Assembly (NCBI GenBank): GCA_964576795.1
Contig: CAZNWT010000002.1
Span: 65,033 to 129,032, forward strand
DNA from: an uncultured Victivallales bacterium
GTDB lineage: Bacteria; Verrucomicrobiota; Kiritimatiellia; UBA8416
Length of the DNA stretch: 64,000 bases
Reading direction: 5' to 3'
Position numbers and translations under genes: made by a program
Part shown: positions 20,045 through 47,930 of the stretch, in pieces
How the letters are laid out: every line of letters begins with the position of its first letter
Position numbering within the stretch: position 1 is the first letter of the stretch
The notes under the pieces: model-generated
What the model was told of the DNA's origin: nothing
The model's input: the letters and a program-made list of their open reading frames with translations, nothing else
Databases searched by the model: none

Positions 20045-20296
20045 GGGGGAGGGGAGGGTTCCGAGTTCAGGGTTAGGGGCTATTTGGCATAGGTGTAAAG
20101 TTACACAATATCCAATATTCAACAAGGAATATTCAACTGAACATCGGAATCCAAATGCATACATTGCCCGGAAATGCCGAAAGCTGAGCTATGTTCCGGT
20201 GTTTCTCTTCACTTGAAAATTGGATATTCCTTGTTCGACATTGGATATTCAGTTTTTTTGTGTCTAGACCCTTTTCGGACACCGTCTAGCTAGGGG

Positions 20297-21783: not shown

Positions 21784-23039
21784 GATGCTTCCTCCTCCTC
21801 TTGATCCGGTGTTTTTACCTTTTCCAGCATCACAAGCAGGATGCGCTGTCGCCTCACAGCCTGAACCGTGGCACGGCATCCCTGAGCTTCTACGGTTTCA
21901 CCCATCCTCGGAATGCGTTCAGCTTCTGCGGCAACCCATCCGGCAATGCGGTCCGCCCCGTCGGCCTCCAGATCCATATCCAACTCGTAGTTGATATCTT
22001 CGAGGCTGACGCCGCCGTCAACAAGCCAGCTTGTTTCGCTGAGCTGCTGGATGGGGTCGGCCTCTTCGCCGTACTCGTTGTCCACGTCTTCTGCGATTTC
22101 TTCAAGAATGTCACCACGGGTGATGACCCCGGCGGTACCGCCATATTCATCAGAGACGACGGCGACGCGACAGTTTTCTTTTTGAAACATCGTGAGCAGC
22201 GTATCAAGGGGCGCGGTCTCGGGAACGAAATGCGGACTGGTTGTAGCAATACTCAGATCGTGCCCTTCCGAGAGCAAAAAGCGAGGGACATCGAGAAAGC
22301 CTTCGATTGCATCCAGAGTTTCGCGATAGAGCGGCAGGTAACGGTAATGCGATTTTCGGGCGATGGCTTCTTGAAGGTCGGGAGGCTCTGTCAAGTCGAT
22401 CCCAATCAGATCGACACGTGGGGTCATGACGTCGCTGGCTTGCGTCTCCTCAAGGCGGATGATTCCGTCCACCATGGTGCGCTCTTCTTCATCCAGCACG
22501 CCCTCTTCTTCACCAACCTCAACGACGGTAAGGAACTCATCTTCGGTAAGTGTTTTGCTGGTGACGTGTAGATCCTTGGCGAAGATGGCGGCGGTCCACT
22601 CAAGGGCATAGCGGAGTGGTTTCATGATGCGAATCAGAAAAATCAACACCTTTGAATAGAGGCCAGCGAGCTCGGGTGCTCGGGCCATGGCGATGCGTTT
22701 TGGGGCCACTTCGCCGAAGAGGAGGAGCAGCATCGTCATGGCAGGAATGGCAATGGCTTCGGCATGTTCAACATCCAGGGATTGAAGAATGGCAAACCCG
22801 AGGGATGCGGACGCTACGTTGACTACCGTGTTGCCAATGAGAATGGTGGAGAGCAACCGCGTTGGGTGGTTGAGCATTTTTTCCACGCGGGCGGCCGCTT
22901 TTGCGTGCTGCTGGCGTAGTCGATTGATTTGAAGCGAGTTCAGTGAGAAAAGGCAGGTTTCTGAGCTCGAAAAGAATGCAGAGCAGAGCAGCAGCAGAAT
23001 CAGCACAATACATTGTATGATCAGGATCGTGGATATCAT
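21780..23039 (-). CDS. HlyC/CorC-family (CNNM) transporter: DUF21 + CBS pair + CorC_HlyC
   Basis: 'LCSAFFSSSETCLFSLN', CBS region, acidic CorC-type C-terminus. Confidence 0.75.
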   Translation of the reverse strand: MISTILIIQCIVLILLLLCSAFFSSSETCLFSLNSLQINRLRQQHAKAAARVEKMLNHPTRLLSTILIGNTVVNVASASLGFAILQSLDVEHAEAIAIPAMTMLLLLFGEVAPKRIAMARAPELAGLYSKVLIFLIRIMKPLRYALEWTAAIFAKDLHVTSKTLTEDEFLTVVEVGEEEGVLDEEERTMVDGIIRLEETQASDVMTPRVDLIGIDLTEPPDLQEAIARKSHYRYLPLYRETLDAIEGFLDVPRFLLSEGHDLSIATTSPHFVPETAPLDTLLTMFQKENCRVAVVSDEYGGTAGVITRGDILEEIAEDVDNEYGEEADPIQQLSETSWLVDGGVSLEDINYELDMDLEADGADRIAGWVAAEAERIPRMGETVEAQGCRATVQAVRRQRILLVMLEKVKTPDQEEEEAS

Positions 23040-23872
23040 GGTGATGGGGGTGGGGTTCTGGGTTCTGGGTTCCGGGTTCCGAGTTCCGAGTTTAGGGATG
23101 TGACGTCGGTAACGCGTAGTTTGGTGCGGTGGATTGCGGGGTAGTGTTGAATTTCCATTACCTTAATCATCCAGTGTTCGTTGATTTTCTTGCAGCTCTT
23201 GACCCAAAGTCGGCGCTTGATGTTTCCTTTGGCGTCATAGCCTTCTGCCTGTAGCATCATATGCGTTTTTTTACTGATCCAAAGGCGAACCGTGGCGTAG
23301 GGGGTGGGGTTCTGGGTTTTGGGTTCCGAGTTCTGGGTTCTGGTCTCGGCCGTGCTTACGACTTGGCTAGGGCTTTGCGTTGTGGGGGCTTTGATTTCGA
23401 CGATGTAACAATCGAAGGTTCGGATGGATTCCTCGCCAACAAGCGTTCCGCCAGGCCACCAAAGAAATGCCAGCGAGAGGTCAACCCAGCTTAAGTCGGT
23501 TTTCTGAATTGGCAGAGATAAATCTTCCAACGGAGCATCCCGAAGGGGATCTCCAGCGGTGTGGTGGTAGTTGGGAGGCTGTCCGTGAGTGATGGTGAGT
23601 TTTTCCAATGCTCGACCAAATGCATCGTGGATGGTGTAGCAGGCGCGCGGGGGTGTCGCCCCCCATTGGGCGTCCAGCGTGACTTTGAATGTAGCCAGAG
23701 GAATTCCGCGTTGCTTCCGGACAAGGAGATCACACGAAACCTGAATGGGATCTGTTGGCAGCTGTGCGACCACATTTCGGAGCAGTTGATCTGCAGAAAA
23801 TTGGACGTTGGTGGCATCAGCTAGAGTTGCGACAGACAACAGCACTAAGGCTGTCGACAGAATCAGTTTCAA
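23036..23872 (-). CDS. Secreted protein, LolA-like outer-membrane lipoprotein-sorting fold (tentative); low-complexity P/T-rich internal repeat
   Basis: Signal peptide 'MKLILSTALVLLSVATLADA'. DNA direct repeat ggggtggggttctgggtt…ccgagttc at 23045-23090 and 23303-23348. Confidence 0.3.
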   Translation of the reverse strand: MKLILSTALVLLSVATLADATNVQFSADQLLRNVVAQLPTDPIQVSCDLLVRKQRGIPLATFKVTLDAQWGATPPRACYTIHDAFGRALEKLTITHGQPPNYHHTAGDPLRDAPLEDLSLPIQKTDLSWVDLSLAFLWWPGGTLVGEESIRTFDCYIVEIKAPTTQSPSQVVSTAETRTQNSEPKTQNPTPYATVRLWISKKTHMMLQAEGYDAKGNIKRRLWVKSCKKINEHWMIKVMEIQHYPAIHRTKLRVTDVTSLNSELGTRNPEPRTPPPSP

Positions 23873-24123: not shown

Positions 24124-24576
24124 ATCGTCCCCCTCGATTGTAATGCCATACTCATGACATCCGTTCTTATCCTGTTTTAGACTCTAGCATACGTGCGTGG
24201 CCTATTAACAAGCGAAATAATGAATAAAATCTGGATATTTTTCGTGGACTAACCCCCAGAATGCCACTAAGCGGGTGTTGGTGTTGATTGTGTTAAGATT
24301 CGAATGCTGGAAACAAAGGCTCTTCTCAGAAAATGGAGGGTTAGGCTCCGTCCCTACTGTTGTTCGGATGCCAAAATGAGAATTGCGGGTATGCCTCTGT
24401 TGTGACGGATGGCATCGAGCGAACCGCAGGATCGTTTAGGGACACGAGAAGTAGGCACACATCTCCGAGGTGTAGCCCTTCCGGCCTGTGGCCGGTGTGC
24501 ATCCCCGACAATCTATGGCTGGATTTTTACTCAGTATATTGTTGAGGTTAATATACGTTTATGTATATTAATCATT

Positions 24577-25212
24577 ATGAAATACGATAACACAGTGGCG
24601 CTTCTTGGATCCGAAGGGGTATTTGATCTCGCTACGGCAGTCCAACTTCTCAATGAGAAGCGTGAAACGGTTCGCGTCCAGCTCTCTCGCTGGTGCAAAG
24701 CGGGGAAGCTTCTTTCGCTACGCCGTGGGCTGTACGCGTTCCCAGAGCACAATTGCGGCCGAAAGGTGAATCCGGCAGAGTTGGCCAACCGGTTGCTTAC
24801 GCCTTCTTACCTCAGTCGCCATTGGGCGTTGGGTTTTTTTGGCTTGATTCCTGAATCCGTCACGACCTATACCAGCGTGACGTCGCGCACTCCCTGCCGT
24901 TTCAATAACATGTTTGGCGCCTTTCGTTATCAGCACGTGAAGCGTCAGGCTTTCTTTGGATATCGGCCTTATAAAATCGAGGGCAGAACGGTCCTGATGG
25001 CAGAACCGGAGAAGGCGTTGCTTGATTTGTGGCATCTTGAGAAAGGGGCATGGACGGCCGCACGGATGGAAGCCATGCGGTTTCAGAACGTTGAGCTGGT
25101 GGATGCGCAAAAACTGCGTGATTATGCTGAGCGCTATGCTTCGTCTCGGCTAACGGTGGCGGCTTTGGTATGGAGTATGACATTAGGTGAGACAGATGGG
25201 GTAGAATTATGA
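24577..25212 (+). CDS. abiEi: AbiEi-like antitoxin/transcriptional regulator (type IV TA)
   Basis: Start 'MKYDNTVALLG'. N-terminal wHTH followed by the AbiEi C-terminal domain. Stop overlaps the AbiEii start. Confidence 0.6.
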   Translation: MKYDNTVALLGSEGVFDLATAVQLLNEKRETVRVQLSRWCKAGKLLSLRRGLYAFPEHNCGRKVNPAELANRLLTPSYLSRHWALGFFGLIPESVTTYTSVTSRTPCRFNNMFGAFRYQHVKRQAFFGYRPYKIEGRTVLMAEPEKALLDLWHLEKGAWTAARMEAMRFQNVELVDAQKLRDYAERYASSRLTVAALVWSMTLGETDGVEL

Positions 25213-26009
25213 AAGATGAAGCATTGTCAATCGTTGCGGATGTGCATGATCCCGGACGCAAGCTGAACCTTCTGCGCGAGTATCTACAGTCCTGTGCGCT
25301 AAGATCGCTCCACGAGAGCGAGGCCTTTCTGAATCTGTCCTTCGTTGGTGGCACTGCCCTGCGCTTCCTGTTCAATCTGCCCCGTTTTTCAGAGGATCTG
25401 GATTTTTCTTTGGAGGCTCCCGATGGTTACGATGGTGAACGATGGATGAAGAAGCTAAAGACCGATTTTGAACTGGCGGGGTTTGAGACAGGGATTCGAT
25501 GGAATTCAAAGACGACTGTGCACAAGGCATGGCTTCGTGTAGGCGAGATTCTGCATGACACGGGCTTGGCGGCGATGCGGGAGCAGAAGCTCTCCATCAA
25601 GCTTGAGATTGACACGCGCCCTCCTGCCGGTGCCGCGTGTCAGAGGACCATTGTCACGAGGCATCGCATTCTGGCACTGCAACACCATGACCTGCCCTCG
25701 TTGTTTGCTGGCAAGATCCATGCACTCATGACGCGCGGCTACCCAAAAGGTCGCGACTGGTACGATCTCCTCTGGTATAGGGGACAACGACCGCGCCCCC
25801 AACCCAACCTGATTCAATTGCAGAATGCTCTGGATCAAACGCAGGGAAAAGGGGCTGTCGATGCCGAGGATTGGCGAACTGTTTTAAAGGTACAGTTCGA
25901 TTCCCTTGACGTGACAGCATTGGCCGAGGATGTTGCCCCATTTCTTGAACGCCCATCAGAGGCCGCCCTCTTGTCGCGAGACAACATCTGTTCCCTGCTA
26001 CAGTCGTGA
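25209..26009 (+). CDS. abiEii: AbiEii/AbiGii-family nucleotidyltransferase toxin (DUF1814)
   Basis: 'SFVGGTALRFLFNLPRFSEDLDFSL' is the nucleotidyltransferase hG[GS]…D.D motif. Confidence 0.7.
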   Translation: MKDEALSIVADVHDPGRKLNLLREYLQSCALRSLHESEAFLNLSFVGGTALRFLFNLPRFSEDLDFSLEAPDGYDGERWMKKLKTDFELAGFETGIRWNSKTTVHKAWLRVGEILHDTGLAAMREQKLSIKLEIDTRPPAGAACQRTIVTRHRILALQHHDLPSLFAGKIHALMTRGYPKGRDWYDLLWYRGQRPRPQPNLIQLQNALDQTQGKGAVDAEDWRTVLKVQFDSLDVTALAEDVAPFLERPSEAALLSRDNICSLLQS

Positions 26010-26097
26010 AAGGACGTAGAACGTTGCTCTGCGCCGTTTAACGCGGCGGGGATGTGCACACAACGGGATCAGATGTCAACACGCAATGGTATGCTAC

Positions 26098-26145
26098 GGG
26101 GTCAGATGTCAAAAATTTCCTAGAAAATTTTTGACGTCTGCCCCC
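26098..26145. repeat. P1 palindrome copy (~48-bp perfect hairpin GGGGTCAGATGTCAAAAATTTYCTAGAAAATTTTTGACGTCTGMCCCC). Other copies at 27726-27773, 28142-28189 (inside the RAYT-DnaA CDS), 28842-28889 and 29113-29161. Half-copies at 26063-26080, 28106-28128, 29041-29060 and 29162-29181
   Basis: Read directly from the sequence. Palindrome centred on TCTAGA, at least 5 full copies within 3.2 kb. Confidence 0.9.
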
Positions 26146-26414
26146 TTTTTCTTCTGACCCCTTTTTTACGGTACCAGCCGGTGCGCCACCATAGCATGTG
26201 TCATTCCGAGCGAAGTGCTTGCATCCCGGACTTGCTTCGGGGGCGAGGGATCTCGGTTTGGGCAACACGCCTTTAATGGATGACCCCGGTTATGAGTAGG
26301 CACACATTCCCGACAGTCCCTAATCGGGATTCCCAACTCCGAGGTGTAGCCCCAGATTGTATCTGGGCCCGCCTGACGGGCGGGAATACGTGATGCAATG
26401 ACGCACAGAGAGCA

Positions 26415-27576
26415 TCAGGCGATGATAGAGCCATCCCAAAGGCGATTGAGAAATTCGCGCCAGGGAAGGATGTCAATCTCGCCGACTCGTCTGGCTTGGG
26501 ATTCGTTACATACGACAATGGCTTTTGCAGGGGAATACTCATCTATGAAGGCCCGTAGAGGGCGAAGATCCCGTGACTGTACGCTACGTGTTCCTTTCAC
26601 CTCAATGGCCACCTGACCGTCACCTAGGATAAAGTCGACCTCCAAGCCTGACTTGGTACGCCAAAAGGCAAGTTTATGTTCAAGCTCTAGATAGGAGCGG
26701 TGCGCAACTAATTCCATAAGCATGAAATGTTCAAACGCTTGACCAAACAATTCGCCACGCTCTGATTCAATTTTTCGGCCTGAAAGAAATCCCGCTACCC
26801 CAACATCGAAGAGGTAGAACTTCGAAGCTTTTCCAATGACTTGTCGGCTTTGACGCCTCTTAAACGGTGGCAGCATCATCCCTAGTAGCGTATCCATGAG
26901 AATTTGGTAGTACTCTCGAACCGTTTTTGCGTCGACTCCGCACTCACGCGCAATGTTGGCGAAATTGGTCAGCTGGCCATGCGAATACCCCATTGCCTCA
27001 AAGAATCGGGAAAATGCCGGGATGTTCCTCGTGAGACCTTCGTCAAAGACTTCCTCTTTAAGATAGTCACTTACGTAAGCTTTCAGATCTCGGCGACCGT
27101 GCGTTTGGAGATAGTGCGCGGGAATGAGTCCAAGATTCAAAGCCTGCAGCAGATCAAGCTCTGGTAGTTCACGTGTTGTTAGCGGATGCATGTGAAAGCG
27201 CCAAGCGCGACCGCCAAGCAGGTTTGCGTGCCCCCTGCGGAGTTTGCGTGCACTTGAACCGCAAAGAATGAAACCAATGCCTTTGTTTTCGATCAGCCAG
27301 TGCACCTCATTCAGTAAATGAGGGACTTTTTGAACTTCATCGAGAATAACGGGGTGTTGCAGCTCTTCTGGTGTGCGTGCCAGCAGCTGCTCGCGAAGAA
27401 GTGCAGGTCGCTTTGTGAGTTCAAAAAGCAGGTCGGTTTTTAGAAAATCATAAACAATACTATCAGGAAAACGCATTTTCAGCAGTGTTGATTTCCCTGT
27501 TTTCCTCGCACCCCACAAGAATGCAGATTGCCCGGTCGGCAAGTCCAGATTTATGATTCTATCTATCGAATTCATG
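26415..27576 (-). CDS. AAA+ ATPase of the AAA_14 + DUF4143 family ('ATP-binding protein')
   Basis: Walker A 'GARKTGKST', Walker B 'PVILDEVQ', DUF4143-like C-terminal half. Confidence 0.7.
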
Positions 27577-27784
27577 ATATCGTCCCCCGAATAAGTCAAC
27601 TAAACAGGAGTAGGTTGCCGGTTTTGGACGGTTAATGCAAGTAAGATCTTTTTGGTAGGCGAGGGTAGGCACACATCTCCGAGGTGTAGCCCTCTCATTC
27701 CTGCCTGTGGCCGGTGTAGGCCCACGGGGTCAGATATCAAAAATTTCCTAGAAAATTTTTGACGTCGGACCCCTGACTGGGTAA

Positions 27785-28840
27785 TCACCTCGTTAAATCG
27801 CCACATAATGCATAAAGTTGCGTGGCCATCACTTGATTATCTGCTACTTCTTGTCGGAGCTTTTTCAACTGTGCTGATACAGCTGCCGAAGTTCCGTACT
27901 CGAGCGTTTCGGCAACTTCTCTTTGGTTCATCCCTGCAAGTTTACAGAGCAAATAAGCGGCAATAGGTCTCGCAAATGAACCATATTGACGCCGCAGCAG
28001 TTCAGAGGGATTTAAATCAAAATGCTGTGCCACCGCATGAATAATGACTTCTGGAGAAATGTTTACCGATCGTCTTCTGAAATGATCTGCGGGAGAAGCC
28101 TCCCCGGGGTCAGATGTCAAAAATTTCGTACCCTCTGCCACGGGGTCAGACGTCAAAAATTTTCTAGAAAATTTTTGACATCTGACCCCGCTCTCTCCGC
28201 TCTCCCCTCCCTCTGATTTTAGAATTTCAATAAATTCGGTGTCTGTATTAGCAATACCCGCCTCAATAAACTTTCTGTATTGTTCTTCCCGATCATGGTT
28301 TTGCTCCATCATTGAAAGTATGGGTTGGTACTCTACAAAGTTCCAGCGCCAAACGGGATCAATGTATCCGCGAAAGGTGCTCCAGCCATATTGGCGCAGA
28401 TAGAGGATTTTTTCGTCAACGGTGCTGTCCTTATGTCGACTGGTGTGTATGGGATTGAGGTGTATATAGCGGCTGAGTTTGAGAAGGTATTGATTCCCTT
28501 TGACGAGAACGGAGTTATAGCGTCCTTGAAAAAGATGGCCGCACTCATTGTGTCGAAGGTTGAAATAAACGCTATAGCCGGTGAGAACGCTTTGCATAAA
28601 GCGGCTGATATTCGCCTTGGGAGTTTCTGCTAATAAGTGGAAATGATTATCCATGAGACAGATCAGATAGAGGCGGACATCATAAGAATCGCAACTCTCG
28701 GCCAGACGACGAAGTAGTCGTTCTCGATCGTGATTGTCGTTAAAAATATCACGCCGCCCGTTGCCGCGGGAGGTGATGTGGTATATGGCGCCCTCAAATT
28801 GCAATCTGCGCTTACGTGGCATAGAACACCTTTCGCACAA
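27785..28840 (-). CDS. HUH Y1 transposase (IS200/RAYT-like) fused to a DnaA domain-IV-like HTH; carries an in-frame P1 palindrome insertion in the linker
   Basis: HuH 'LMDNHFHLLAE', catalytic-Tyr motif 'SRYIHLNPI'. C-terminus 'FARPIAAYLLCKLAGMNQREVAETLEYGTSAAVSAQLKKL' resembles DnaA domain IV. Linker peptide 'GVRCQKFSRKFLTSDP' is translated from the palindrome. Confidence 0.75.
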   Translation of the reverse strand: MCERCSMPRKRRLQFEGAIYHITSRGNGRRDIFNDNHDRERLLRRLAESCDSYDVRLYLICLMDNHFHLLAETPKANISRFMQSVLTGYSVYFNLRHNECGHLFQGRYNSVLVKGNQYLLKLSRYIHLNPIHTSRHKDSTVDEKILYLRQYGWSTFRGYIDPVWRWNFVEYQPILSMMEQNHDREEQYRKFIEAGIANTDTEFIEILKSEGGESGESGVRCQKFSRKFLTSDPVAEGTKFLTSDPGEASPADHFRRRSVNISPEVIIHAVAQHFDLNPSELLRRQYGSFARPIAAYLLCKLAGMNQREVAETLEYGTSAAVSAQLKKLRQEVADNQVMATQLYALCGDLTR

Positions 28841-29212
28841 CGGGGTCAGATGTCAAAAATTTTCTAGAAAATTTTTGACGTCTGCCCCCTACCTTCCATC
28901 TCTCGAAATGCAACCGTTTCTATCTCTCGATACGGAACCGAGTCATAGCAGGATATAGAGGCGACGGGGGAGGACGTGCTGGGAAAATAGTGATTTATAA
29001 GGGAATTTCAGGGGGAGCAGATCGCTATAGCTTCAATATTTGAATTTTTGAAGCCTGACCCCAGAGGGTTACCAGAGGGTTAATTTCGCAACGGGGGCAC
29101 GCAACCGCGCAACGGGGTCAGATGTCAAAAATTTTCTAGGAAATTTTTGACGTCTGACCCCAATTTTTGACGTCTGACCCCTGGCTTGCTGGTGACATTT
29201 GATTTAGCCTCT

Positions 29213-29320
29213 AAGTAGGCACACATCTCCGAGGTGTAGGCTTCTCTGGTTCCGGCCTGTGGCCGGTGTGCATCCCCGACAATCCCTGTCGGGGTTCCCA
29301 ACTCGGAGATATGCACGTAC
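29213..29320. repeat. P2 element (~105 bp, GTAGGCACACATCTCCGAGGTGTAG…CCGGCCTGTGGCCGG…CCCCGACAATCCCTGTCGGGG…CTCGGAGATATGCAC), a MITE/REPIN-like unit with internal hairpins. Other copies at 24450-24512, 26291-26400 and 27663-27720, always next to P1 copies
   Basis: Four copies with GTAG 5' ends and imperfect terminal inverted repeats. Confidence 0.8.
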
Positions 29321-29357
29321 TGAAGATAGACGGAGGGGGGGGGCAGGTGTTGGTGTT

Positions 29358-35006: not shown

Positions 35007-35340
35007 GTAAAGAGGTGATATCCATGCAATCATTCTGCTGTCAATGATTCTGCCAAATCTCTCTTCTCATTTTTCTTAGGTTGCGGCTTTGCCTTCACCT
35101 ATTATTAGTCTTTTTGTGTGGTGATAAATCTGCCCTGTAACACGATGTCTCAGGCGTGCGAAATCCTGTCGCATTGATGTTATGCGGCGCAATAAACTAA
35201 AGCGAAAAATCATGTAAGACACTGGTTGTGTCGTTGTACGGTTTACCCTGCATTGCACAACGAGCATGGTTGTCAATTTTGTGCGCATGTGTAATAGTCT
35301 GTTTCAAGAATCAAGATTAGGCTGACTCGGTGCTCAGCTT

Positions 35341-38217: not shown

Positions 38218-38233
38218 AGCTCACGGACGAGGG

Positions 38234-38305
38234 GGGGGCTGGCCTTCGGGGAAGGCCGCCCTACTGGCTGAGAGCCGTAGCCCCCACTTCCCCGAAGCGC
38301 AGGGC
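38234..38305. repeat. REP doublet (type A GGGCTGGCCTTCGGGGAAGGCCGCCCTAC + type B GTAGCCCCCRCTTCCCCGAAGCGCAGGGC). Further clusters at 39938-40044, 40663-40720, 40778-40988 (C+A+tandem 16-mers+B), 42728-42830 (C+A+B) and 44393-44455 (C+A, inside a CDS 3' end)
   Basis: Each unit is a GC-rich hairpin with GTAG/CTAC termini, with A and B in inverted orientation (REPIN-like). Type C is GTAGCCCCGCCTTCMCCGAAGGCGAGGG. Confidence 0.85.
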
Positions 38306-38402
38306 CGAGGAACGCTAGGATGATGGCAGCGAAAATGAATTTCAGAGTGATCCTTAAATTTACCTTGAAGGTAAATCAAGATGAATGCTATAAAGGTGTT
38401 CG

Positions 38403-38714
38403 ATGAAGTATGAGTTAGCGGGGAAGCACCTCAAAGACCTCTACACAAAGGGCGCCAGCAAAAAATTCAAGTTCATGGACAAGAAGCTCTGCTCAAAGTT
38501 CGTAGAACGCGTTGGGCGGATTGAAGCCGCAGAGAACATTTACGACCTAAGGAATCCACCATCAATGGAGTTTGAGTCTTTGGAGGGCTACCCCAACCGG
38601 TTTTCTATCCGTTTAGACAAAAAGCATCGTCTTGAGTTCGATATCGAATTTGAAGACGAAAAGAAGACGTTTGGTTCCGTAACCGTGATTACGGTAAGCA
38701 AGCACTACGAGTGA
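38403..38714 (+). CDS. higB: HigB-like toxin (RelE/ParE superfamily, 'plasmid maintenance system killer')
   Basis: 103 aa, 'LRNPPSMEFESLEGYPNRFSIRLDKKHRLEFDIEFED'. Lies upstream of the HTH partner, i.e. the hig gene order. Confidence 0.6.
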   Translation: MKYELAGKHLKDLYTKGASKKFKFMDKKLCSKFVERVGRIEAAENIYDLRNPPSMEFESLEGYPNRFSIRLDKKHRLEFDIEFEDEKKTFGSVTVITVSKHYE

Positions 38715-39823
38715 GGCATGTGATGGGTAAACTAAAGCCATTTGTGAATTTGGGTCCGGGCGATACGATTCGAGAAGAGTTGGCGTATTTAAGCTGGGAG
38801 CAGAAGGACTTGGCGGAAATCATGGGGCGAACAGAGAAGAATGTTAGCCAATTGATCACGAACAAGGCCCCCGTGACGTATGAGACAGCTAGCCAGCTTT
38901 CGAAGGTCTTCAAGCAATCCGTGCAGTTTTGGCTCAATCTCGATGCCAATTACCGGCAACGACTCGAAGAAAGTGCAAAGGTTGTGGATACAGAAGCAAA
39001 AGCGCTCATCTACCGCTACATGCCAGTGCGCGAATTACGCAAGTATATCGACCTCCCACGAAGAACCGATGATCTTATTGCAGCAGTCAAAAGTTTCTGG
39101 GACATAGATGAACTGAATTTTGCGTTCTTGGAAACACAAGCGCAGGTCTGTTTCCGTAAATCCGAAGCCTACCGCAATTTCAATCCCTACTATGCCCTCA
39201 CGTGGCTTCAGCTTGCACGCAACTCTCTCACTGGGCATCGCCCTAAAGCGACCTACGCCCCAGATCGCTTGATGGCACTTGCTGAGAAAATTTGTGATTA
39301 TACGATACAGTCTAATGGCATTCATGCATTCATAAAGCAGCTGAACCGTTGTGGCGTTGTCTTTCTGCATCTTGATCATTTTCAGCAGACTTACGTGGAT
39401 GGTGCCTCATTCTTTGATAATGGCAAACCGGTCATTATTTACACTGCCCGTTATAACCGAAACGACAACTTTTGGTTCACAATGGCTCACGAACTTGGGC
39501 ACGTTCTGCTGCATGCCGACGATCAAGAGTCATTCTTTATCGACTCACTGGATCACCTTGATCTTTCTAATAAACGAGAAAAGGAAGCTGACGCTTTTGC
39601 TGAGAAAAGGCTTCGTTCTTCTGAGATTTTGGAGTCATTTCACGGCGTTAAGCGGCCAACGGTTGTTCGGATAAAGAGTGTAGCTCAGAAACTTGGACTC
39701 CATCCTGCGGTAATTGCCGGAAGCCTGCAGCATCACGGCCAAGCATCCTGGAGCAGTTTCCATGAGCTGAAGGAGGGTGTGAAAGCTGATCTTCCTCGTG
39801 CGAAGATCGAAAGGGCGAAATGA
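38711..39823 (+). CDS. HigA-like XRE HTH antitoxin fused to an ImmA/IrrE-family Zn-metallopeptidase domain
   Basis: HTH 'IREELAYLSWEQKDLAEIMGRTEKNVSQLI', HEXXH motif 'FTMAHELGHVLLH'. Start overlaps the HigB stop. Confidence 0.75.
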   Translation: MRHVMGKLKPFVNLGPGDTIREELAYLSWEQKDLAEIMGRTEKNVSQLITNKAPVTYETASQLSKVFKQSVQFWLNLDANYRQRLEESAKVVDTEAKALIYRYMPVRELRKYIDLPRRTDDLIAAVKSFWDIDELNFAFLETQAQVCFRKSEAYRNFNPYYALTWLQLARNSLTGHRPKATYAPDRLMALAEKICDYTIQSNGIHAFIKQLNRCGVVFLHLDHFQQTYVDGASFFDNGKPVIIYTARYNRNDNFWFTMAHELGHVLLHADDQESFFIDSLDHLDLSNKREKEADAFAEKRLRSSEILESFHGVKRPTVVRIKSVAQKLGLHPAVIAGSLQHHGQASWSSFHELKEGVKADLPRAKIERAK

Positions 39824-40181
39824 ACATGCGCAAGATTAATGGGTTTCATTTTGCTCTTCCGTTGTGGAGATCAATATGAGTAAACCCACAATAATCTGCC
39901 CCAAGTGCACGTCTCGAGGTGGAGCTTGCAGGAGGGTGGGGCTGGCCTTCGGGGAAGGCCGCCCTACGTGGGGACGAGCGATGCAGGGATGATGACGAAA
40001 GGTTAGTGGCGTTGAGTAGCCCCCGCTTCCCCGAAGCGCAGGGCCGCACAAGGCAAGGACTACAGCAGGACAAAACAACATGACACGACATCCGGACACA
40101 GTCAGTTTTTAGCGGGGCGTCCTTCCGCATTGGGAGGTCGTCGACGGCTGCTATTTCGTAACAGTTCGGCTGGCAAACAGT

Positions 40182-40661
40182 TTGCCGCGACACGTTACGG
40201 AAGAACTGGCTGCTGTGTTGTCGGATGTGACGGAAAAGGATTATCTGAAGAAGTCGCGGGCGTATTTCAAGCAGATGGAGCAGTGGCTCGACAAGAACAC
40301 GGGGGATACGTGGTTACAGCAAGAGGCTGTGGCATCCATTGTGCAAGACACGATTGAGAAGTATACGAATCTGGGCTATTGGCATATGTTTGCAGCCGTG
40401 ACCATGCCGAATCATGTCCACCTGTTCTTTCGTTGTGGCGATCGGTCGCTTGGGCGTGTCATGCGTAGTTTCAAGCGCTATACTGGGCGAGCTGGAAACG
40501 CGGTGCTGGGGCGACACGGCAAACGCTTTTGGCAGCGGGAATGGTTTGATCATTGGTCGCGCAGCACAGATGAAGATGACAAGATTGTGTCGTATATCAG
40601 GAACAACCCCATGCGTGCAGGATTGATAAAGGATGGCGAAACATGGCCATGGTTGATGTAA
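40182..40661 (+). CDS. REP-associated tyrosine transposase (RAYT, IS200-like Y1 HUH), 159 aa
   Basis: HuH 'MPNHVHLFF', Tyr motif 'VSYIRNNPMRAGL'. Flanked on both sides by GTAG-REP doublets. Confidence 0.8.
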   Translation: MPRHVTEELAAVLSDVTEKDYLKKSRAYFKQMEQWLDKNTGDTWLQQEAVASIVQDTIEKYTNLGYWHMFAAVTMPNHVHLFFRCGDRSLGRVMRSFKRYTGRAGNAVLGRHGKRFWQREWFDHWSRSTDEDDKIVSYIRNNPMRAGLIKDGETWPWLM

Positions 40662-40838
40662 TGGGGCTGGCCTTCGGGGAAGGCCGCCCTACGTAGCCCC
40701 CGCTTCCCCGAAGCGCAGGGCAGAACCGGGCAAGGATTACAGCAAAGAAAATGGCGAATGATTGGCGGGGGTGAATTGAGTAGCCCCGCCTTCACCGAAG
40801 GCGAGGGTTGGGCTGGCCTTCGGGGAAGGCCGCCCTAC

Positions 40839-40918
40839 TTGGGGCCGCGCGATATTGGGGCCGCGCGATATAGGGGCCGCGTGATGCAAGGGCCGCGTGA
40901 TGCGAGATGTTCGTGATG
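40839..40918. repeat. Five degenerate 16-nt tandem repeats (TTGGGGCCGCGCGATA…) inside a REPIN spacer
   Basis: Read from the sequence. The homologous spacer at 39968-40015 has a single unit. Confidence 0.8.
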
Positions 40919-41014
40919 CAGGGATGATGGTGAACGATCAGTGGCGTTGAGTAGCCCCCGCTTCCCCGAAGCGTAGGGCAAAAGCACTGGGCAAAACAAC
41001 GCAAGGAATTTGGT

Positions 41015-42706
41015 ATGCCTAAGAAAAAACAGAAACTTGAACTGACATGGATTGGGAAGGATGAGCAGCCGCAGCTTGAGCCACGGATTCTTATTGAAGA
41101 TCCGAGTAAGTCATATGGCGATTCGAATGCCGAGAATATGCTAATCCATGGGGACAATCTGCTTGCTCTCAAGGCACTGGAACAGGAGTTTACTGGGAAA
41201 GTTCAATGTATCTATGTTGATCCACCATTCAACACCGGCCAAGCGTTTCAGCACTACGAAGATGGAGTTGCTCATTCGTTGTGGCTGACTCTTATGGAGT
41301 CTCGGATTGAGTTTCTCTTCAGATTGTTGAGCCCAACGGGAACGCTGTGGGTACATTTGGACGACAATGAGGTCCACTATATGAAAGTTCTTATGGATCA
41401 GACTCTTGGACGAAGTCGGTTCATATCATCAATTGTGTGGCGAGCGGCCGACTCCTCGAATAATGATGCGAAGCAGTTTTCCTTGGACCACAACACTATT
41501 CTTGTCTATGCCAAAAGCTCCGACTGGGAGTCATTTCTTCTTCCTCGGCAAGACAAGGACAATCTGCACTACAGTAATCCAGATGACGACCCTCGGGGAC
41601 CGTGGTTTCAGGGTAACCTATCTTCTCCAAACCCCCGAGAAAATCTGCGCTTTGATGTCTCTTCCCCGCAAGGCTATGTGATTCATCCGCCGAGTAATGG
41701 ATGGCGCTGGAGCAGAGAGCGTATGAATTCTATGATCAGCACAGGGGAGATCGCTTTCTCTAGCGACGGAACGAGGGTAATGAAGAAGACGTACCTCGCG
41801 AACCAAAAGGGCCTTTCGCCCTCATCGCTCTGGAGTGACATTGAAGACACCGGGCACAACCGACAGGCAAAGTATGAGCTGAAAAAGCTTTTTCCCGACA
41901 CTCCGACGGCAGAGCTTTTCAAGACCCCTAAGCCGGAACGTCTGATTTACAAAATCCTTCAGATAGCCACGAAAGAGGGGGATATCGTGTTGGACTCATT
42001 CCTTGGTTCTGGAACTACTGCGGCGGTCGCACATAAGTTGGGGCGTAGATGGATAGGCGCCGAACTGGGAAATGCCTACAGCGAGGCCTGCATTCCCCGG
42101 CTCAGAAAGGTTTGCGACGGAACCGACCAAGGGGGAGTATCTAAATTGATTGAGTGGGTTGGCGGCGGCGGATTCAAGTGCTACGAACTTGCTCCCAGCC
42201 TCTTGAAGTCTGATACACACGGCAACTGGGTAATCAGCGATGAGTACAATGCCGACATGTTGGCCGCCGCGATGGCGAAGCATGAGGCGTTCAACTACAG
42301 CCCGGATGCGGAGATCTACTGGAAGCAGGGTAAATCATCCGATAAGGATTTTATTTTCACCACGACGTCATTTGTACAGGTGGCATTTCTTGATCGGTTG
42401 CACGAGGAAATGCAAGAGGATGAGCACCTGCTGATTTGCTGCAAGAAGTTTTCTGCGCCCTGTGCGCGACGCTATTCCAACATTGAGATCAGGAAGATCC
42501 CGAAGATGCTACTGGGTAAGTGCGAGTTCGGGCGTGATGACTATAGCCTTAACATCGTGAATGTTCCCACAGAGGAGGATGCGCCCGCTTTTGTGCCGCA
42601 AGGCCCTCCCGCTGCGCCAACTGCAAAACCGAAGCCAAAACGCAAGAAGGGCGGACGTCCCGGCCTGAGTCAGCCGGATTTGTTTGGTGAAGGAACGGCA
42701 GAATGA
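41015..42706 (+). CDS. mod: Type III restriction-modification Mod subunit (beta-class N6-adenine methyltransferase)
   Basis: Motif IV 'IYVDPPFNTG' precedes motif I 'VLDSFLGSGTTAAVA', the beta-class order. 563 aa. Confidence 0.85.
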   Translation: MPKKKQKLELTWIGKDEQPQLEPRILIEDPSKSYGDSNAENMLIHGDNLLALKALEQEFTGKVQCIYVDPPFNTGQAFQHYEDGVAHSLWLTLMESRIEFLFRLLSPTGTLWVHLDDNEVHYMKVLMDQTLGRSRFISSIVWRAADSSNNDAKQFSLDHNTILVYAKSSDWESFLLPRQDKDNLHYSNPDDDPRGPWFQGNLSSPNPRENLRFDVSSPQGYVIHPPSNGWRWSRERMNSMISTGEIAFSSDGTRVMKKTYLANQKGLSPSSLWSDIEDTGHNRQAKYELKKLFPDTPTAELFKTPKPERLIYKILQIATKEGDIVLDSFLGSGTTAAVAHKLGRRWIGAELGNAYSEACIPRLRKVCDGTDQGGVSKLIEWVGGGGFKCYELAPSLLKSDTHGNWVISDEYNADMLAAAMAKHEAFNYSPDAEIYWKQGKSSDKDFIFTTTSFVQVAFLDRLHEEMQEDEHLLICCKKFSAPCARRYSNIEIRKIPKMLLGKCEFGRDDYSLNIVNVPTEEDAPAFVPQGPPAAPTAKPKPKRKKGGRPGLSQPDLFGEGTAE

Positions 42707-42866
42707 GTATGCAGCGTTACGAATTGAGTAGCCCCGCCTTCCCCGAAGGCGAGGGCCGGGAGCTGGCCTTCGGGGAAGGCCGCTCTACTGCACCGCGCGA
42801 CGTAGCCCCCGCTTCCCCGAAGCGCAGGGCCGCACAGCGCAGGGATTGTGGTGGGGGGAATGGCAG

Positions 42867-44480
42867 ATGAAAACGAACAAACGTCAACTGCTGAAGGTGA
42901 GTCTGCCCTTTGGAAGCACGGAAGGCATAGCGCTGGAGTTCAAGGAAGCCAGAAATGCGTTGCCGAAGAATCTTTTCGATACGGTCTGCGCTTTTCTGAA
43001 TATGGATGGTGGGTTGATTGTTCTGGGAGTGGCCGATGATGGTGCCATCACGGGGGTGGAGCCCGGGGCTGTAGACGCGATCAAGACTGAGCTTGCGAAT
43101 CTTTCCAATAATCCCCAGAAGCTGTCACCGCCTTATTTGCTCTTTCCTCATGTTGAGGTGCACGACGGGAAACGCGTAATCACAGTGCAAGTTCCGGCCA
43201 GCTCGCAGGTTCACCAGACTGGCGGGCATACCTATCTGCGTAGTGAGGATGGTGACTATCGTATCAAGGGGCTAAACCAGATCGCGGGGCTGATGAATCG
43301 GAAGTTGAGTCTATTCAGTGAGCAGCGCGTGCTGCCATATTTGGGCATGGATGATCTGGATCCAGCGTTGTTTGAAAAGGCACGAATCCTGATGAAGGCG
43401 CACCTGCCGCAGCACCCGTGGGCTGCCCTACCGCCCGAGGATTTATTGAAAGTGGCGGGCTTTGTCCGGAAGGATTTTGAGACGGGAAAGCCGGGGTATA
43501 CACTTGCCGCCGCGCTAATGTTCGGCACGGACGCCACCATTCAGAGCGCGGCACCCGGATACAAGTTCGATGCGCTGCTACGGCGGCATGATCAGGAACG
43601 TTTTGATGATCGGTTGACGGTGCGAACCAACCTGATTGATGCTTTCGATCTGCTGATGGGATTCGTGGACAAGCACCTGAATGATCCTTTCTATCAGGAG
43701 GGGACGACCAGTATCAGCCTGCGCGCCGTCATCTTCCGTGAGCTTGTGGCAAACATCATCGCCCATCGGGATTATGTAAGTGTGGCTCCGGCGACGTTCT
43801 GTATCTATCCAGACCGGGTGGAGCTGAAGAATCCGAACATCCCGCACTATCATGGCAGAATAGATCCGGATGCCTTCACGCCTTTCCCCAAGAATCCGAC
43901 CATCTGCAAGTTCATGATCCAGATTGGGCGCTATGAGGAGCTAGGCTCCGGCGTGCGGCGCGTGAACAAGTATCTACCATACTATGCCCCCGGTGCGGGA
44001 AAACCCGTATTCGAAGATGGCGATATGTTTACAGTAACTGTGCCGGTAGTGGACACCCTGAAAAAGAAACGGCTAGAGTCGGCACCAGTCGGGGCACCAG
44101 TCGAGGCACCAGTTGGGGCACCAGTCGAGGCACCAGTCGCAGGGCAAGTCACAGGGCAAGTCACAGGGCAAGTCACAGGGCAAGTACAGAGGATACTTGC
44201 GATCTGCGAGGGGGAGATGACACGAAAAGAGCTGCAACTCGCCATCGGACTGAAGGGGCGTGACAACTTTGAGGTCAACTATCTCAAGCCTGCACTGGTC
44301 GCAGATTTGCTAGAAATGACCATCCCCGACAAGCCGAAGAGTCGCTTGCAGAAGTACCGGATCACGGACAAAGGGCGTGAGTTGCAAGAACAAGTAGCCC
44401 CGCCTTCACCGAAGGCGAGGGCCGGGGGGCTGGCCTTCGGGGAAGGCCGCCCTACTCAAGAGCTGGAGGAAACCTCATGA
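42867..44480 (+). CDS. AlbA_2/Schlafen-like (divergent AAA, PF04326-type) + HATPase_c_4-like + C-terminal wHTH protein. Contains in-frame 12-nt tandem repeats and a REP-derived C-terminal tail
   Basis: 'EGIALEFKEARNALPKNLFDTVCAFLNMDGGLIVLGV', 'IAHRDYVS…PDRVELKNPN', 'IGRYEELGSGVRRV'. Repeat peptide 'APVGAPVEAPVGAPVEAPVAGQVTGQVTGQVTGQV'. Last 25 aa are encoded by REP C+A. Confidence 0.6.
   Translation: MKTNKRQLLKVSLPFGSTEGIALEFKEARNALPKNLFDTVCAFLNMDGGLIVLGVADDGAITGVEPGAVDAIKTELANLSNNPQKLSPPYLLFPHVEVHDGKRVITVQVPASSQVHQTGGHTYLRSEDGDYRIKGLNQIAGLMNRKLSLFSEQRVLPYLGMDDLDPALFEKARILMKAHLPQHPWAALPPEDLLKVAGFVRKDFETGKPGYTLAAALMFGTDATIQSAAPGYKFDALLRRHDQERFDDRLTVRTNLIDAFDLLMGFVDKHLNDPFYQEGTTSISLRAVIFRELVANIIAHRDYVSVAPATFCIYPDRVELKNPNIPHYHGRIDPDAFTPFPKNPTICKFMIQIGRYEELGSGVRRVNKYLPYYAPGAGKPVFEDGDMFTVTVPVVDTLKKKRLESAPVGAPVEAPVGAPVEAPVAGQVTGQVTGQVTGQVQRILAICEGEMTRKELQLAIGLKGRDNFEVNYLKPALVADLLEMTIPDKPKSRLQKYRITDKGRELQEQVAPPSPKARAGGLAFGEGRPTQELEETS
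44081..44190. repeat. In-frame 12-nt tandem repeats (gcaccagtcgrg x5 then gggcaagtcaca x4) within the CDS
   Basis: Read from the sequence. Confidence 0.9.
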
Positions 44481-47699: not shown

Positions 47700-47930
47700 A
47701 ACTCTACGCGCTCCTCGAATACGTGGAAGCACGTCCTACAAGGATTTTGGATGGTGCGGTTGGTGTAGGACGGGCTTCCCCGGTATTCCGGGGCGCCCGT
47801 GGTATTCCGAGGGATCCGTGTCGATGGTGCTGAATCTCCACGCGCTCTTCGAATACGGGGAAGCACGTCCTACAACGCGCGCCTTCAAAATCAATTTGCG
47901 TTTTCCTCATTCTTCTCGCAAGAACCCCTC
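47700..47930. repeat. Intergenic repeat structure: 37-nt direct repeat (CACGCGCTCYTCGAATACGKGGAAGCACGTCCTACAA at ~47705 and ~47840) with internal inverted copies (TGTAGGACGGGCTTCC)
   Basis: Read from the sequence. Confidence 0.7.

Follow-up and report, generated by a model that had tools for sequence, protein, structure and literature searches.

A TIRtron of an uncultured Victivallales bacterium with a palindromic dimer of its own terminal repeat in frame within the transposase gene

Y1 transposases with a Bac_DnaA_C-like C-terminus constitute the subclass 2.1.2 of TnpA_REP in the classification of Quentin et al. (2018; PMC6006769), who equate the whole subclass 2.1 with the TIRYTs described by Di Nocera et al. 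(2013; PMC3733652). The TIRYT genes are flanked by terminal inverted repeats with the sequence GGGG[AT][CG]A[CG] (GGGGWSAS) and not by repetitive extragenic palindromes (REPs) (PMC3733652); and in Stenotrophomonas the same authors reported families of self-complementary repeats that lie close together (Di Nocera et al., 2013; PMC3733652). Here we describe a locus that, by its sequence features, is a TIRtron carrying a TIRYT of subclass 2.1.2, and not a pair formed by a RAYT and its REPs. The locus lies within a stretch of 64,000 nucleotides (hereafter, the window) from an uncultured Victivallales bacterium (assembly GCA_964576795.1, contig CAZNWT010000002.1, positions 65,033 to 129,032), where a 48-bp palindromic repeat, which we call P1, is present on both sides of the TIRYT gene as well as in frame within it. 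We consider it probable that the intragenic copy arose when the repeat of this TIRtron, in the form of P1, recently inserted itself by local hopping into the linker of its own transposase, which event would have been an accident and not an evolved feature.

The locus shares with the TIRtrons a Y1 HUH core joined to a DnaA-like helix-turn-helix (HTH), a gene bracketed at a conserved distance by GGGGWSAS inverted repeats (here GGGGTCAG), the dimers or clusters that the repeat forms in the neighbourhood of the gene, and the affiliation with the Planctomycetes–Verrucomicrobia–Chlamydiae (PVC) bacteria, in which the class is common. It differs in having a zero-spacer dimer of the repeat at each flank, together with a dimer and a half-copy in frame within its own gene. 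With the RAYT/REP and REPIN systems (E. coli TnpA_REP, 4er8; Bertels and Rainey, 2011) the locus has in common the catalytic fold (TM-score, TMt, 0.74), the single-copy state of the gene, the gene-flanking palindromic repeats as presumed substrates, and the capacity of those repeats to form hairpins as single-stranded DNA (ssDNA). In contrast to those systems, the present protein has 345 residues in two domains and scores below the NCBIfam cut-off for RAYTs, while the repeats are 24-bp inverted repeats devoid of the GTAG tag, instead of short REP hairpins, and are not dispersed over the approximately 68 kb covered for P1, namely the 64-kb window plus 4.3 kb of contig past its end. As to the IS200/IS605 family (IS608, ISDra2), the Y1 HUH chemistry and the recognition of a hairpin in only one strand would, by analogy, be the same, and the two P1 copies flanking the gene share the polarity of a T.G pair, as do the hairpins at the left and right ends of those insertion sequences; but the IS200/IS605 ends are not inverted repeats, their transposase lacks an HTH, and the whole element was seen here just once. 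Membership in that family was discarded for the ends being inverted repeats and for tblastn finding no second copy of the gene in the window. A final likeness is that with the Rickettsia palindromic elements and with the intragenic GTAG/CGTC REPs of Opitutus terrae (Di Nocera et al., 2013), which are likewise read through as 16–30 extra residues, also include dimers and double insertions, and are thought to be tolerated in linkers or loops; the difference resides in that here the host gene is the presumed transposase of the repeat itself and that ancestral sequence was replaced, not just added to.

The features of the locus, in coordinates of the window, are the following:

27785..28822, minus strand: TIRYT gene, 345 residues, with the Y1 HUH nuclease at about residues 1–205, a P1-derived linker at 206–251, and the DnaA-domain-IV-like HTH at about 252–345
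28842..28889, plus strand: P1 #4, 5' of the gene; its outer half (28866–28889) is at the canonical site of the left terminal repeat, 67 bp from the ATG
28142..28189, minus strand: P1 #3, intragenic, inverted with respect to the other four copies and equal to the consensus; translated as GVRCQKFSRKFLTSDP (residues 212–227)
28106..28130, plus strand: solitary left half of P1, intragenic; translated as (T)KFLTSDP (residues 231–239)
27726..27773, plus strand: P1 #2, 11 bp 3' of the stop codon; its outer half (27726–27749) corresponds to the right terminal repeat, and the copy truncates on its left a repeat of another family, P2
26059..26162, plus strand: P1 #1 and fragments, with a degenerate left half at 26059–26079, the full copy at 26098–26145, and a right-end fragment, TTCTGACCCC, at 26153–26162
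29043..29090, plus strand: degenerate right half-repeat, with an arm at 29043–29062 (3 mismatches) followed by the flank CAGAGGGTTACCAGAGGGTTA
29114..29181, plus strand: P1 #5, directly abutted by a 20-bp duplicate of its right end (29162–29181)

The TIRYT gene most likely starts with the ATG at 28822, and its product is a Y1 HUH nuclease fused to a DnaA-type HTH, as an earlier note on this DNA, made from the sequence alone, had correctly recognised. This composition was found by Pfam, which gave a match to Y1_Tnp with an E value of 5.8e-16 and one to Bac_DnaA_C of 25.1 bits that is under the gathering score of 31.5; by comparing the profile of the homologues with DnaA chains at the sequence level (E value of 2e-4); and by Foldseek searches with an AlphaFold2 model built from 28 sequences, where residues ~10–205 and 252–345 are confident and the predicted local distance difference test (pLDDT) falls below 50 only in residues 206–251. 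The best structural match of the N-terminal domain was E. coli TnpA_REP in complex with a REP hairpin (4er8, TMt 0.74), followed by the TnpA of IS608 and ISDra2, while the C-terminal domain matched DnaA domain IV (1j1v, TMt 0.89; 3pvp, TMt 0.85; root-mean-square deviation of 1.4–1.5 Å). The HFH motif at residues 60–62 (H60 and H62) and the YIHLNP motif at 119–124 (Y119, in SRYIHLNP) supply the HUH and the Tyr, which residues are invariant in the alignments. Under the RAYT equivalog model of NCBIfam (NF047646), however, the protein obtained 63 bits against a cut-off of 80; with this score, with the two domains of the protein, and with repeats that read GGGGTCAG and not GTAG, the classification as a RAYT–REP system advanced in the earlier note did not stand. 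The tblastn search of the homologues against the window found no second TIRYT copy, the sole other significant match being a RAYT at 40182–40661.

Five full copies of P1 were found, starting at 26098, 27726, 28142, 28842, and 29114, with 0–3 mismatches each and at least 94% identity, against 0 matches in dinucleotide shuffles; a search of the window with the single arm returned 13 matches, all within 26098–29181. The complete cluster, including several halves and other fragments, thus occupies the ~3.1 kb from 26059 to 29181, so that the at least five hairpin copies plus half-sites previously claimed are indeed there, and no copy or arm of P1 occurs in the rest of the 64-kb window nor in the 4.3 kb of contig beyond. 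Exact 21-mer scans of genome, metagenome, and viral contig collections, among which the source genome was not included, gave 0 matches to P1, and a search of the called open reading frames (ORFs) with a 48-residue concatenate of the P1 peptides returned nothing at E <= 10, which search was uninformative in that it missed the known protein as well. P1 is a near-perfect palindrome, and not a perfect one as had been stated, since one consensus position is non-complementary (T10 opposite G39) and individual copies bear 1–3 single-nucleotide polymorphisms (SNPs). That position forms a T.G pair on one strand and a C.A on the other, and therefore confers a strand polarity on P1, which polarity is the same on the plus strand in four copies and inverted in the intragenic copy #3. 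When reverse-complemented, this latter copy coincides exactly with the family consensus, the others being off by 1, 1, 2, and 3 bases. As ssDNA, P1 folds into a 24-bp hairpin of −18 to −25 kcal/mol, with a z-score of about −7 to −11. Certain SNPs are shared among copies in a mosaic manner (C22 in #1 and #2; C44 in #1 and #4), which pattern suggests some gene conversion whatever the interpretation of the locus.

No target-site duplication was seen at the flanks of P1. On the plus strand, a tetranucleotide C-N-A-C stands to the left of every copy, at 26094, 27722, 28138, 28838, and 29110 (CTAC, CCAC, CCAC, CAAC, and CAAC, in that order), the inverted copy #3 included, and the right flanks have no pattern. 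A search of RNA families over 23.5–30 kb matched solely a chance mir-203 on the palindrome, while in a terminator scan P1 #1 and #5, each of which is followed by a T-rich tract, scored as terminator-like. A replication-origin-like cluster of DnaA-type sites was also considered and rejected, inasmuch as the cumulative GC skew climbs steadily through the region.

The homologues of the TIRYT protein number 4555, nearly all of them of 335–349 residues. We compared 86 related loci from Verrucomicrobiota, Planctomycetota, Lentisphaerota, Kiritimatiellia, Nitrospirota, Desulfobacterota, Omnitrophota, and other groups, and found that in 49 of these the TIRYT gene is placed between inverted repeats of 24–27 bp, which are anchored on the invariant GGGTCA and begin with (G)GGGTCA. 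The distance from the outer end of the left repeat to the ATG is 45–126 bp, mostly 54–70, the right repeat is situated 3' of the stop codon, and the element spans some 1035–1140 bp. In the window, the P1 halves open with GGGGTCAG, in agreement with GGGGWSAS, and flank the gene at 28889 and 27726—the full copies on both sides, at 28842–28889 and 27726–27773, being those already pointed out in the earlier note—with an element span of 1164 bp; this layout of terminal repeats, the 67-bp distance to the ATG, and the span identify the locus as a TIRtron. The closest homologues (52–55% identity) have plain 26–27-bp repeats, such as GGGGTCAGACCTCGAAAATCGAATAT, to which the P1 arm is equal in 16 of the first 19 positions; towards its inner end, the repeat of these homologues is made up of a 7-bp unit present twice in direct orientation (for example, TAAATAT TAAATAT). 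Judged from these comparisons, each half of P1 is homologous to the terminal repeat of the related loci, and P1 is formed by two such repeats fused at their inner ends. In proposing that repeat and enzyme belong together, the earlier note was right.

In 11 of the 49 loci the repeat had extra copies, which are stacked and oriented like the end closest to them (as in loci L058 and L011), and in one instance (L046) mini-elements of ~130 bp, bounded by the same repeats, were found several kb away from the gene; the proliferation of repeats near the gene is, on this comparison, a trait of the family. The degenerate half-repeat at 29043..29090 is probably a remnant of another element end, for its flank CAGAGGGTTACCAGAGGGTTA is similar to that found 3' of the right repeat in the related locus L001. 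A candidate remnant of the 3' end of a second TIRYT gene (28990–29062) is possible on the basis of only the repeat and the flank similarity. Both the window at 29062–29090 and L001 at 1662–1690 have, after the right repeat, a short direct repeat of the form CAGAGNNNTACCAGAGNNNTA, so that the conserved element may extend past the right repeat.

The left repeat contains in several loci (L035, L041, L043, L057, L058, L067, and L082) a TTGACA at its inner end, ~30 nt before the ATG, which hexamer in L058 is part of a TTGACA-17-TATACT arrangement directly ahead of the start codon. In the window, the inner half of P1 #4 similarly includes a TTGACA 31 nt before the ATG. This placement suggests that the left repeat might supply the −35 box and that the mRNA would be almost leaderless.

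The intragenic copy was studied in the 120 best proteins, that is, the query and 119 homologues, the latter being those used to build a profile hidden Markov model (HMM). P1 #3 corresponds to codons 212–227 in phase 0, where it is read as GVRCQKFSRKFLTSDP, which confirms the in-frame reading of the repeat as coding sequence put forward before; but the earlier note overlooked that, five codons later, a solitary left arm is translated as well, as (T)KFLTSDP. The P1-derived peptide is exclusive to the query and is found in none of the 119 homologues. The spacing from YRxFVExG to EDVSFR is of 42 residues in 85 of 101 homologues, while to ARP[VI] 60 of 69 have 82 residues, as opposed to 94 in the query. 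The profile HMM aligns with the query over its full length, at 440 bits, with a high posterior probability except in residues ~205–250. The stretch that was replaced is, in the homologues, the conserved IGxxxFRxWVDxxYxxL...EDVSFRR, which in one of these (P0005) includes a predicted helix at residues 212–228; F214 and D234, both of them invariant, belong to this stretch. From the invariant Gly to the Asp the homologues have ~23 residues, which become 36 in the query, 23–24 of them encoded by P1. By this alignment the event is an insertion of one and a half P1 copies accompanied by a loss of roughly 11–15 ancestral codons, which leaves the protein 12 residues longer. Of the 39 invariant residues the query retains 37, the two lost being within the replaced stretch, and there is neither a stop codon nor a frameshift; in the structural model, both protein domains appear intact around the insert. 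Because P1 #3 is identical to the consensus, its insertion looks recent, and by the same comparisons the insert is private to this gene and not a feature of the family. The alignment of orthologues that the earlier note had recommended, with no linker insert among 119, points in the same direction, namely, to a recent private insertion, possibly inactivating. On the mRNA strand, P1 #3 forms a perfect 24-bp duplex if the G.U pair is counted. Such a duplex could, speculatively, be a substrate for RNase III or a block to translation.

The source contig is k141_358956 (133,438 bp) of the ENA assembly ERZ27316330. The arrangement was recovered in contigs of the Logan collection (SRR8526173), one of which is 100% identical to the window at 24484–26226, including P1 #1 and its private SNPs, while a second is 100% identical to 26337–28176, comprising P2, P1 #2, the 3' part of the gene, and the half-copy, and ends 35 nt inside P1 #3, so that the 3' junction of the intragenic P1 is covered. 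The Logan and the source assemblies are independent, though they may derive from the same reads; the identity of these contigs indicates that the arrangement is not the product of one assembler.

If the P1 of this TIRtron did insert itself by local hopping, as we propose, the following steps may be envisaged. The removal of everything between the two repeats of a TIRtron would give rise to P1, a 48-bp cargo-free unit with its GGGG/CCCC tips facing outward; P1 is not a circle junction, because such a junction would join the tips. The HTH domain might recognise the repeat duplex in double-stranded DNA, in a panhandle between left and right repeats, or in the stem of a P1 hairpin, all of which have the same sequence, whereas the Y1 domain, by analogy with its relatives, would nick and rejoin single strands at the tips by means of the Tyr of YIHLNP. 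As an outcome, P1 and half-repeats would occasionally be copied over a short range, which behaviour fits the 3.1-kb cluster. One P1 event, accompanied by a second, partial copy and by the disappearance of ~11–15 ancestral codons, would have struck the inter-domain linker of the element's own gene, landing in the sole stop-free frame out of three and converting a conserved helix into ~45 disordered residues while both domains were kept.

Several considerations weigh against this proposal. A zero-spacer palindromic dimer like P1 occurs in none of the 49 related loci with terminal repeats, so that an origin by internal deletion is plausible though not seen in progress. Our literature search found no biochemical study of any TIRYT, and the mobilisation proposed here draws on the analogy with the TnpA of IS608 and the E. 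coli TnpA_REP. The linker helix of the homologue is also of low confidence in its own model, with the consequence that the loss of this helix may cost less than its conservation suggests. Finally, the proposal does not account for the C-N-A-C to the left of every P1, which might serve as a tetranucleotide for targeting or cleavage or else belong to the repeat.

Among the alternatives, we consider unlikely, albeit by no means far-fetched, that the gene is already dead because of its intragenic palindrome, and that what we see is a decaying TIRtron with relic repeats. The loss of the conserved linker helix along with two invariant residues, the perfect 24-bp mRNA hairpin expected to hinder expression, and the degenerate half-copies and end fragments scattered around the gene would all accord with such a decay; the absence of stops and frameshifts, the retention of 37 of 39 invariant residues, and the full-length HMM score of 440 bits would not, but if the event was recent the intactness of the ORF says little for or against a dead gene. 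The contrary notion, that of a domesticated RAYT–REP system whose palindrome has evolved into a useful part of the protein or of its regulation—as a flexible linker or a self-recognition hairpin, for instance—appears to us very unlikely. The ORF is certainly intact with P1 in phase 0, the domains fold confidently on both sides in a region where the homologue too is modelled with low confidence, and palindromic repeats tolerated in frame by proteins are documented; yet, in either orientation, two of the three frames through P1 contain stops, so that an open frame has a one-in-three chance for the palindrome alone and the intact ORF constitutes weak evidence of selection, while the copy, being equal to the consensus, is young. 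In addition, none of the 119 closest homologues has the insert, and their linkers hardly vary in length; the insertion eliminated a conserved helix that includes an invariant Phe; and neither is the protein a canonical RAYT nor P1 a REP with the GTAG tag. Nothing was found to support the suggestion in the earlier note that the transposase makes use of the insert.

A different proposition would be that the P1 copies are host or regulatory sites—operators for autoregulation through the HTH, and hairpin terminators or mRNA stabilisers of adjacent operons—multiplied by local duplication and gene conversion and not by transposition. All copies being within 3.1 kb of the gene, the overlap of the upstream copy with the likely promoter at the TTGACA, the presence of that hexamer in the repeats of several relatives, the terminator-like character of P1 #1 and #5 with their T-rich tracts, and the mosaic sharing of SNPs suggestive of conversion could be accommodated within that scheme; nevertheless, terminator-like sites are not enriched (5 found versus 3.4 expected in shuffles), the intragenic copy and the solitary halves are hard to explain in such terms, and the repeat-bounded mini-elements several kb from the gene in L046 indicate mobile ends, for which reasons we hold this proposition to be improbable. 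That the palindromes were mis-joined during assembly seems to us scarcely credible: de Bruijn graphs do break at palindromic repeats, and it is inside P1 #3 that one of the Logan contigs stops, but each P1 has its own SNPs and unique flanks, two Logan contigs are fully identical across P1 #1, P1 #2, the half-copy, and the 3' junction of P1 #3, and both before and after the insert the gene keeps its collinearity with the homologues. As an extension of the local-hopping proposal, P1 might be conceived as the smallest possible mobile unit, whose intragenic copy acts as a brake on its own enzyme through the mRNA duplex, either by RNase III cleavage or by ribosome stalling, to which idea we would give but a slim chance. 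Were it true, a burst of P1 would turn down its own driver, and reversibly so if excision were seamless as it is in IS608.

The second repeat, P2, has a length of ~108 bp, opens with AAGTAGGCACACATCTCCGAG and closes with CTCGGAGATATGCACGTACT, and contains inner hairpin modules. Its copies in the window are the following:

29215..29322, plus strand: P2 of full length, a GTAG-tagged, modular element resembling a miniature inverted-repeat transposable element (MITE), with imperfect terminal inverted repeats
27665..27724, plus strand: P2 cut short on the right by P1 #2
26296..26407, plus strand: rearranged P2 variant plus the repeat module GCCTGACGGGCGGGAATACGTGATGCAATGACGCAC, which module is also present in contigs of Ga0307929
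24451..24520, plus strand: P2 without a nearby P1, the nearest being 1.6 kb off

The earlier note was right as to the four copies, but only three of them are near a P1, the copy at 24451 being the exception. An 18-nt P2 pattern matched 25 metagenome stretches, 19 of them from Ga0307929 (at least 19 contigs), with the same modular ends; the form of the family is AAGTAGGCACACATCTCCGAG...CTCGGAGATATGCACRTACT, with variable inner hairpin modules. In the 203 kb of these stretches we found no P1. The dispersal of P2 in this related metagenomic organism that lacks P1 indicates that P2 is an independent family, which had been wrongly grouped with the P1 system, and its closeness to P1 is, by this comparison, a co-location in repeat-rich spacers. 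With respect to MITEs, P1 comprises only the two repeats of its partner, while P2 has imperfect inverted ends and is dispersed in the relative.

The only other significant tblastn match of the TIRYT homologues in the window is situated 11 kb from the TIRYT gene:

40182..40661, plus strand: RAYT-like Y1 protein of 159 residues (Y1_Tnp, 33 bits, above the cut-off; NF047646, 71.7 bits against a cut-off of 80)

This gene has GTAG REP doublets (GGGGCTGGCCTTCGGGGAAGGCCGCCCTAC / GTAGCCCCCGCTTCCCCGAAGCGCAGGGC) on both sides, which doublets recur 6–7 times in the intergenic gaps of 38.2–44.5 kb (38229–44470), and by that organisation the locus reads as a classical REPtron; its RAYT would be a better candidate to handle GTAG-tagged repeats such as P2, if any enzyme does. 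Among the genes of the same region are those of an IrrE-like peptidase/HTH and an N6/N4 DNA methylase, and at 44081–44140 a 12-bp tandem repeat, GGCACCAGTCGR, is present five times within a coding region. Other short repeats, at 26198–26269 (gtcattccgagcgaagtgcttgcatcc... at 26198), 35024–35093, and 47703–47877, are 90–94% identical to Ga0307929 contigs, the break of the Logan contig at 26226 falling inside the first of these; the source genome and its Ga0307929 relative appear to be rich in several small repeat families. Tandem 7-bp repeats of the type GGGTTC(Y)G(R) occur at 23018–23354 and 20056–20081, in or beside a LolA-like gene.

The neighbours of the TIRtron within the repeat-rich region are the following:

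26415..27575, minus strand: AAA_14/DUF4143 ATPase, outside the terminal repeats
24409..26009, plus strand: AbiEi-like antitoxin and AbiEii nucleotidyltransferase toxin pair, directly upstream of the repeat cluster

The DUF4143 ATPase, which the earlier note had named alongside the transposase, was rejected as a component of the system, for in a tblastn search of the 86 related loci a counterpart was beside the TIRYT gene in only one or two, namely L002 (38% identity) and, with a weak match, L066. P1 #1, with its subsequent T-run, lies 89 bp 3' of the stop codon of the AbiE pair. From ~24.4 to 29.3 kb the GC content is 46–50%, compared to ~53% in the surroundings, and direct P2 copies (at 24451 and 29215) bracket this lower-GC AbiE/ATPase/TIRYT stretch, situated between a LolA-like gene and a likely nqr operon; these features are consistent with a small accessory island.

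In-frame palindromic insertions and families of self-complementary repeats are already known, so that the present locus, beyond its value as a source of a substrate, is a curiosity. TIRYTs and TIRtrons are nonetheless widespread, with their 4555 homologues and more than 550 loci in PVC bacteria, Nitrospirota, Desulfobacterota, and other phyla, and the locus offers a natural snapshot of recent terminal-repeat activity in one of these elements, with one copy caught within the gene itself. Its 48-bp hairpin would be a ready minimal substrate for a first biochemical test of cutting and joining by a TIRYT.

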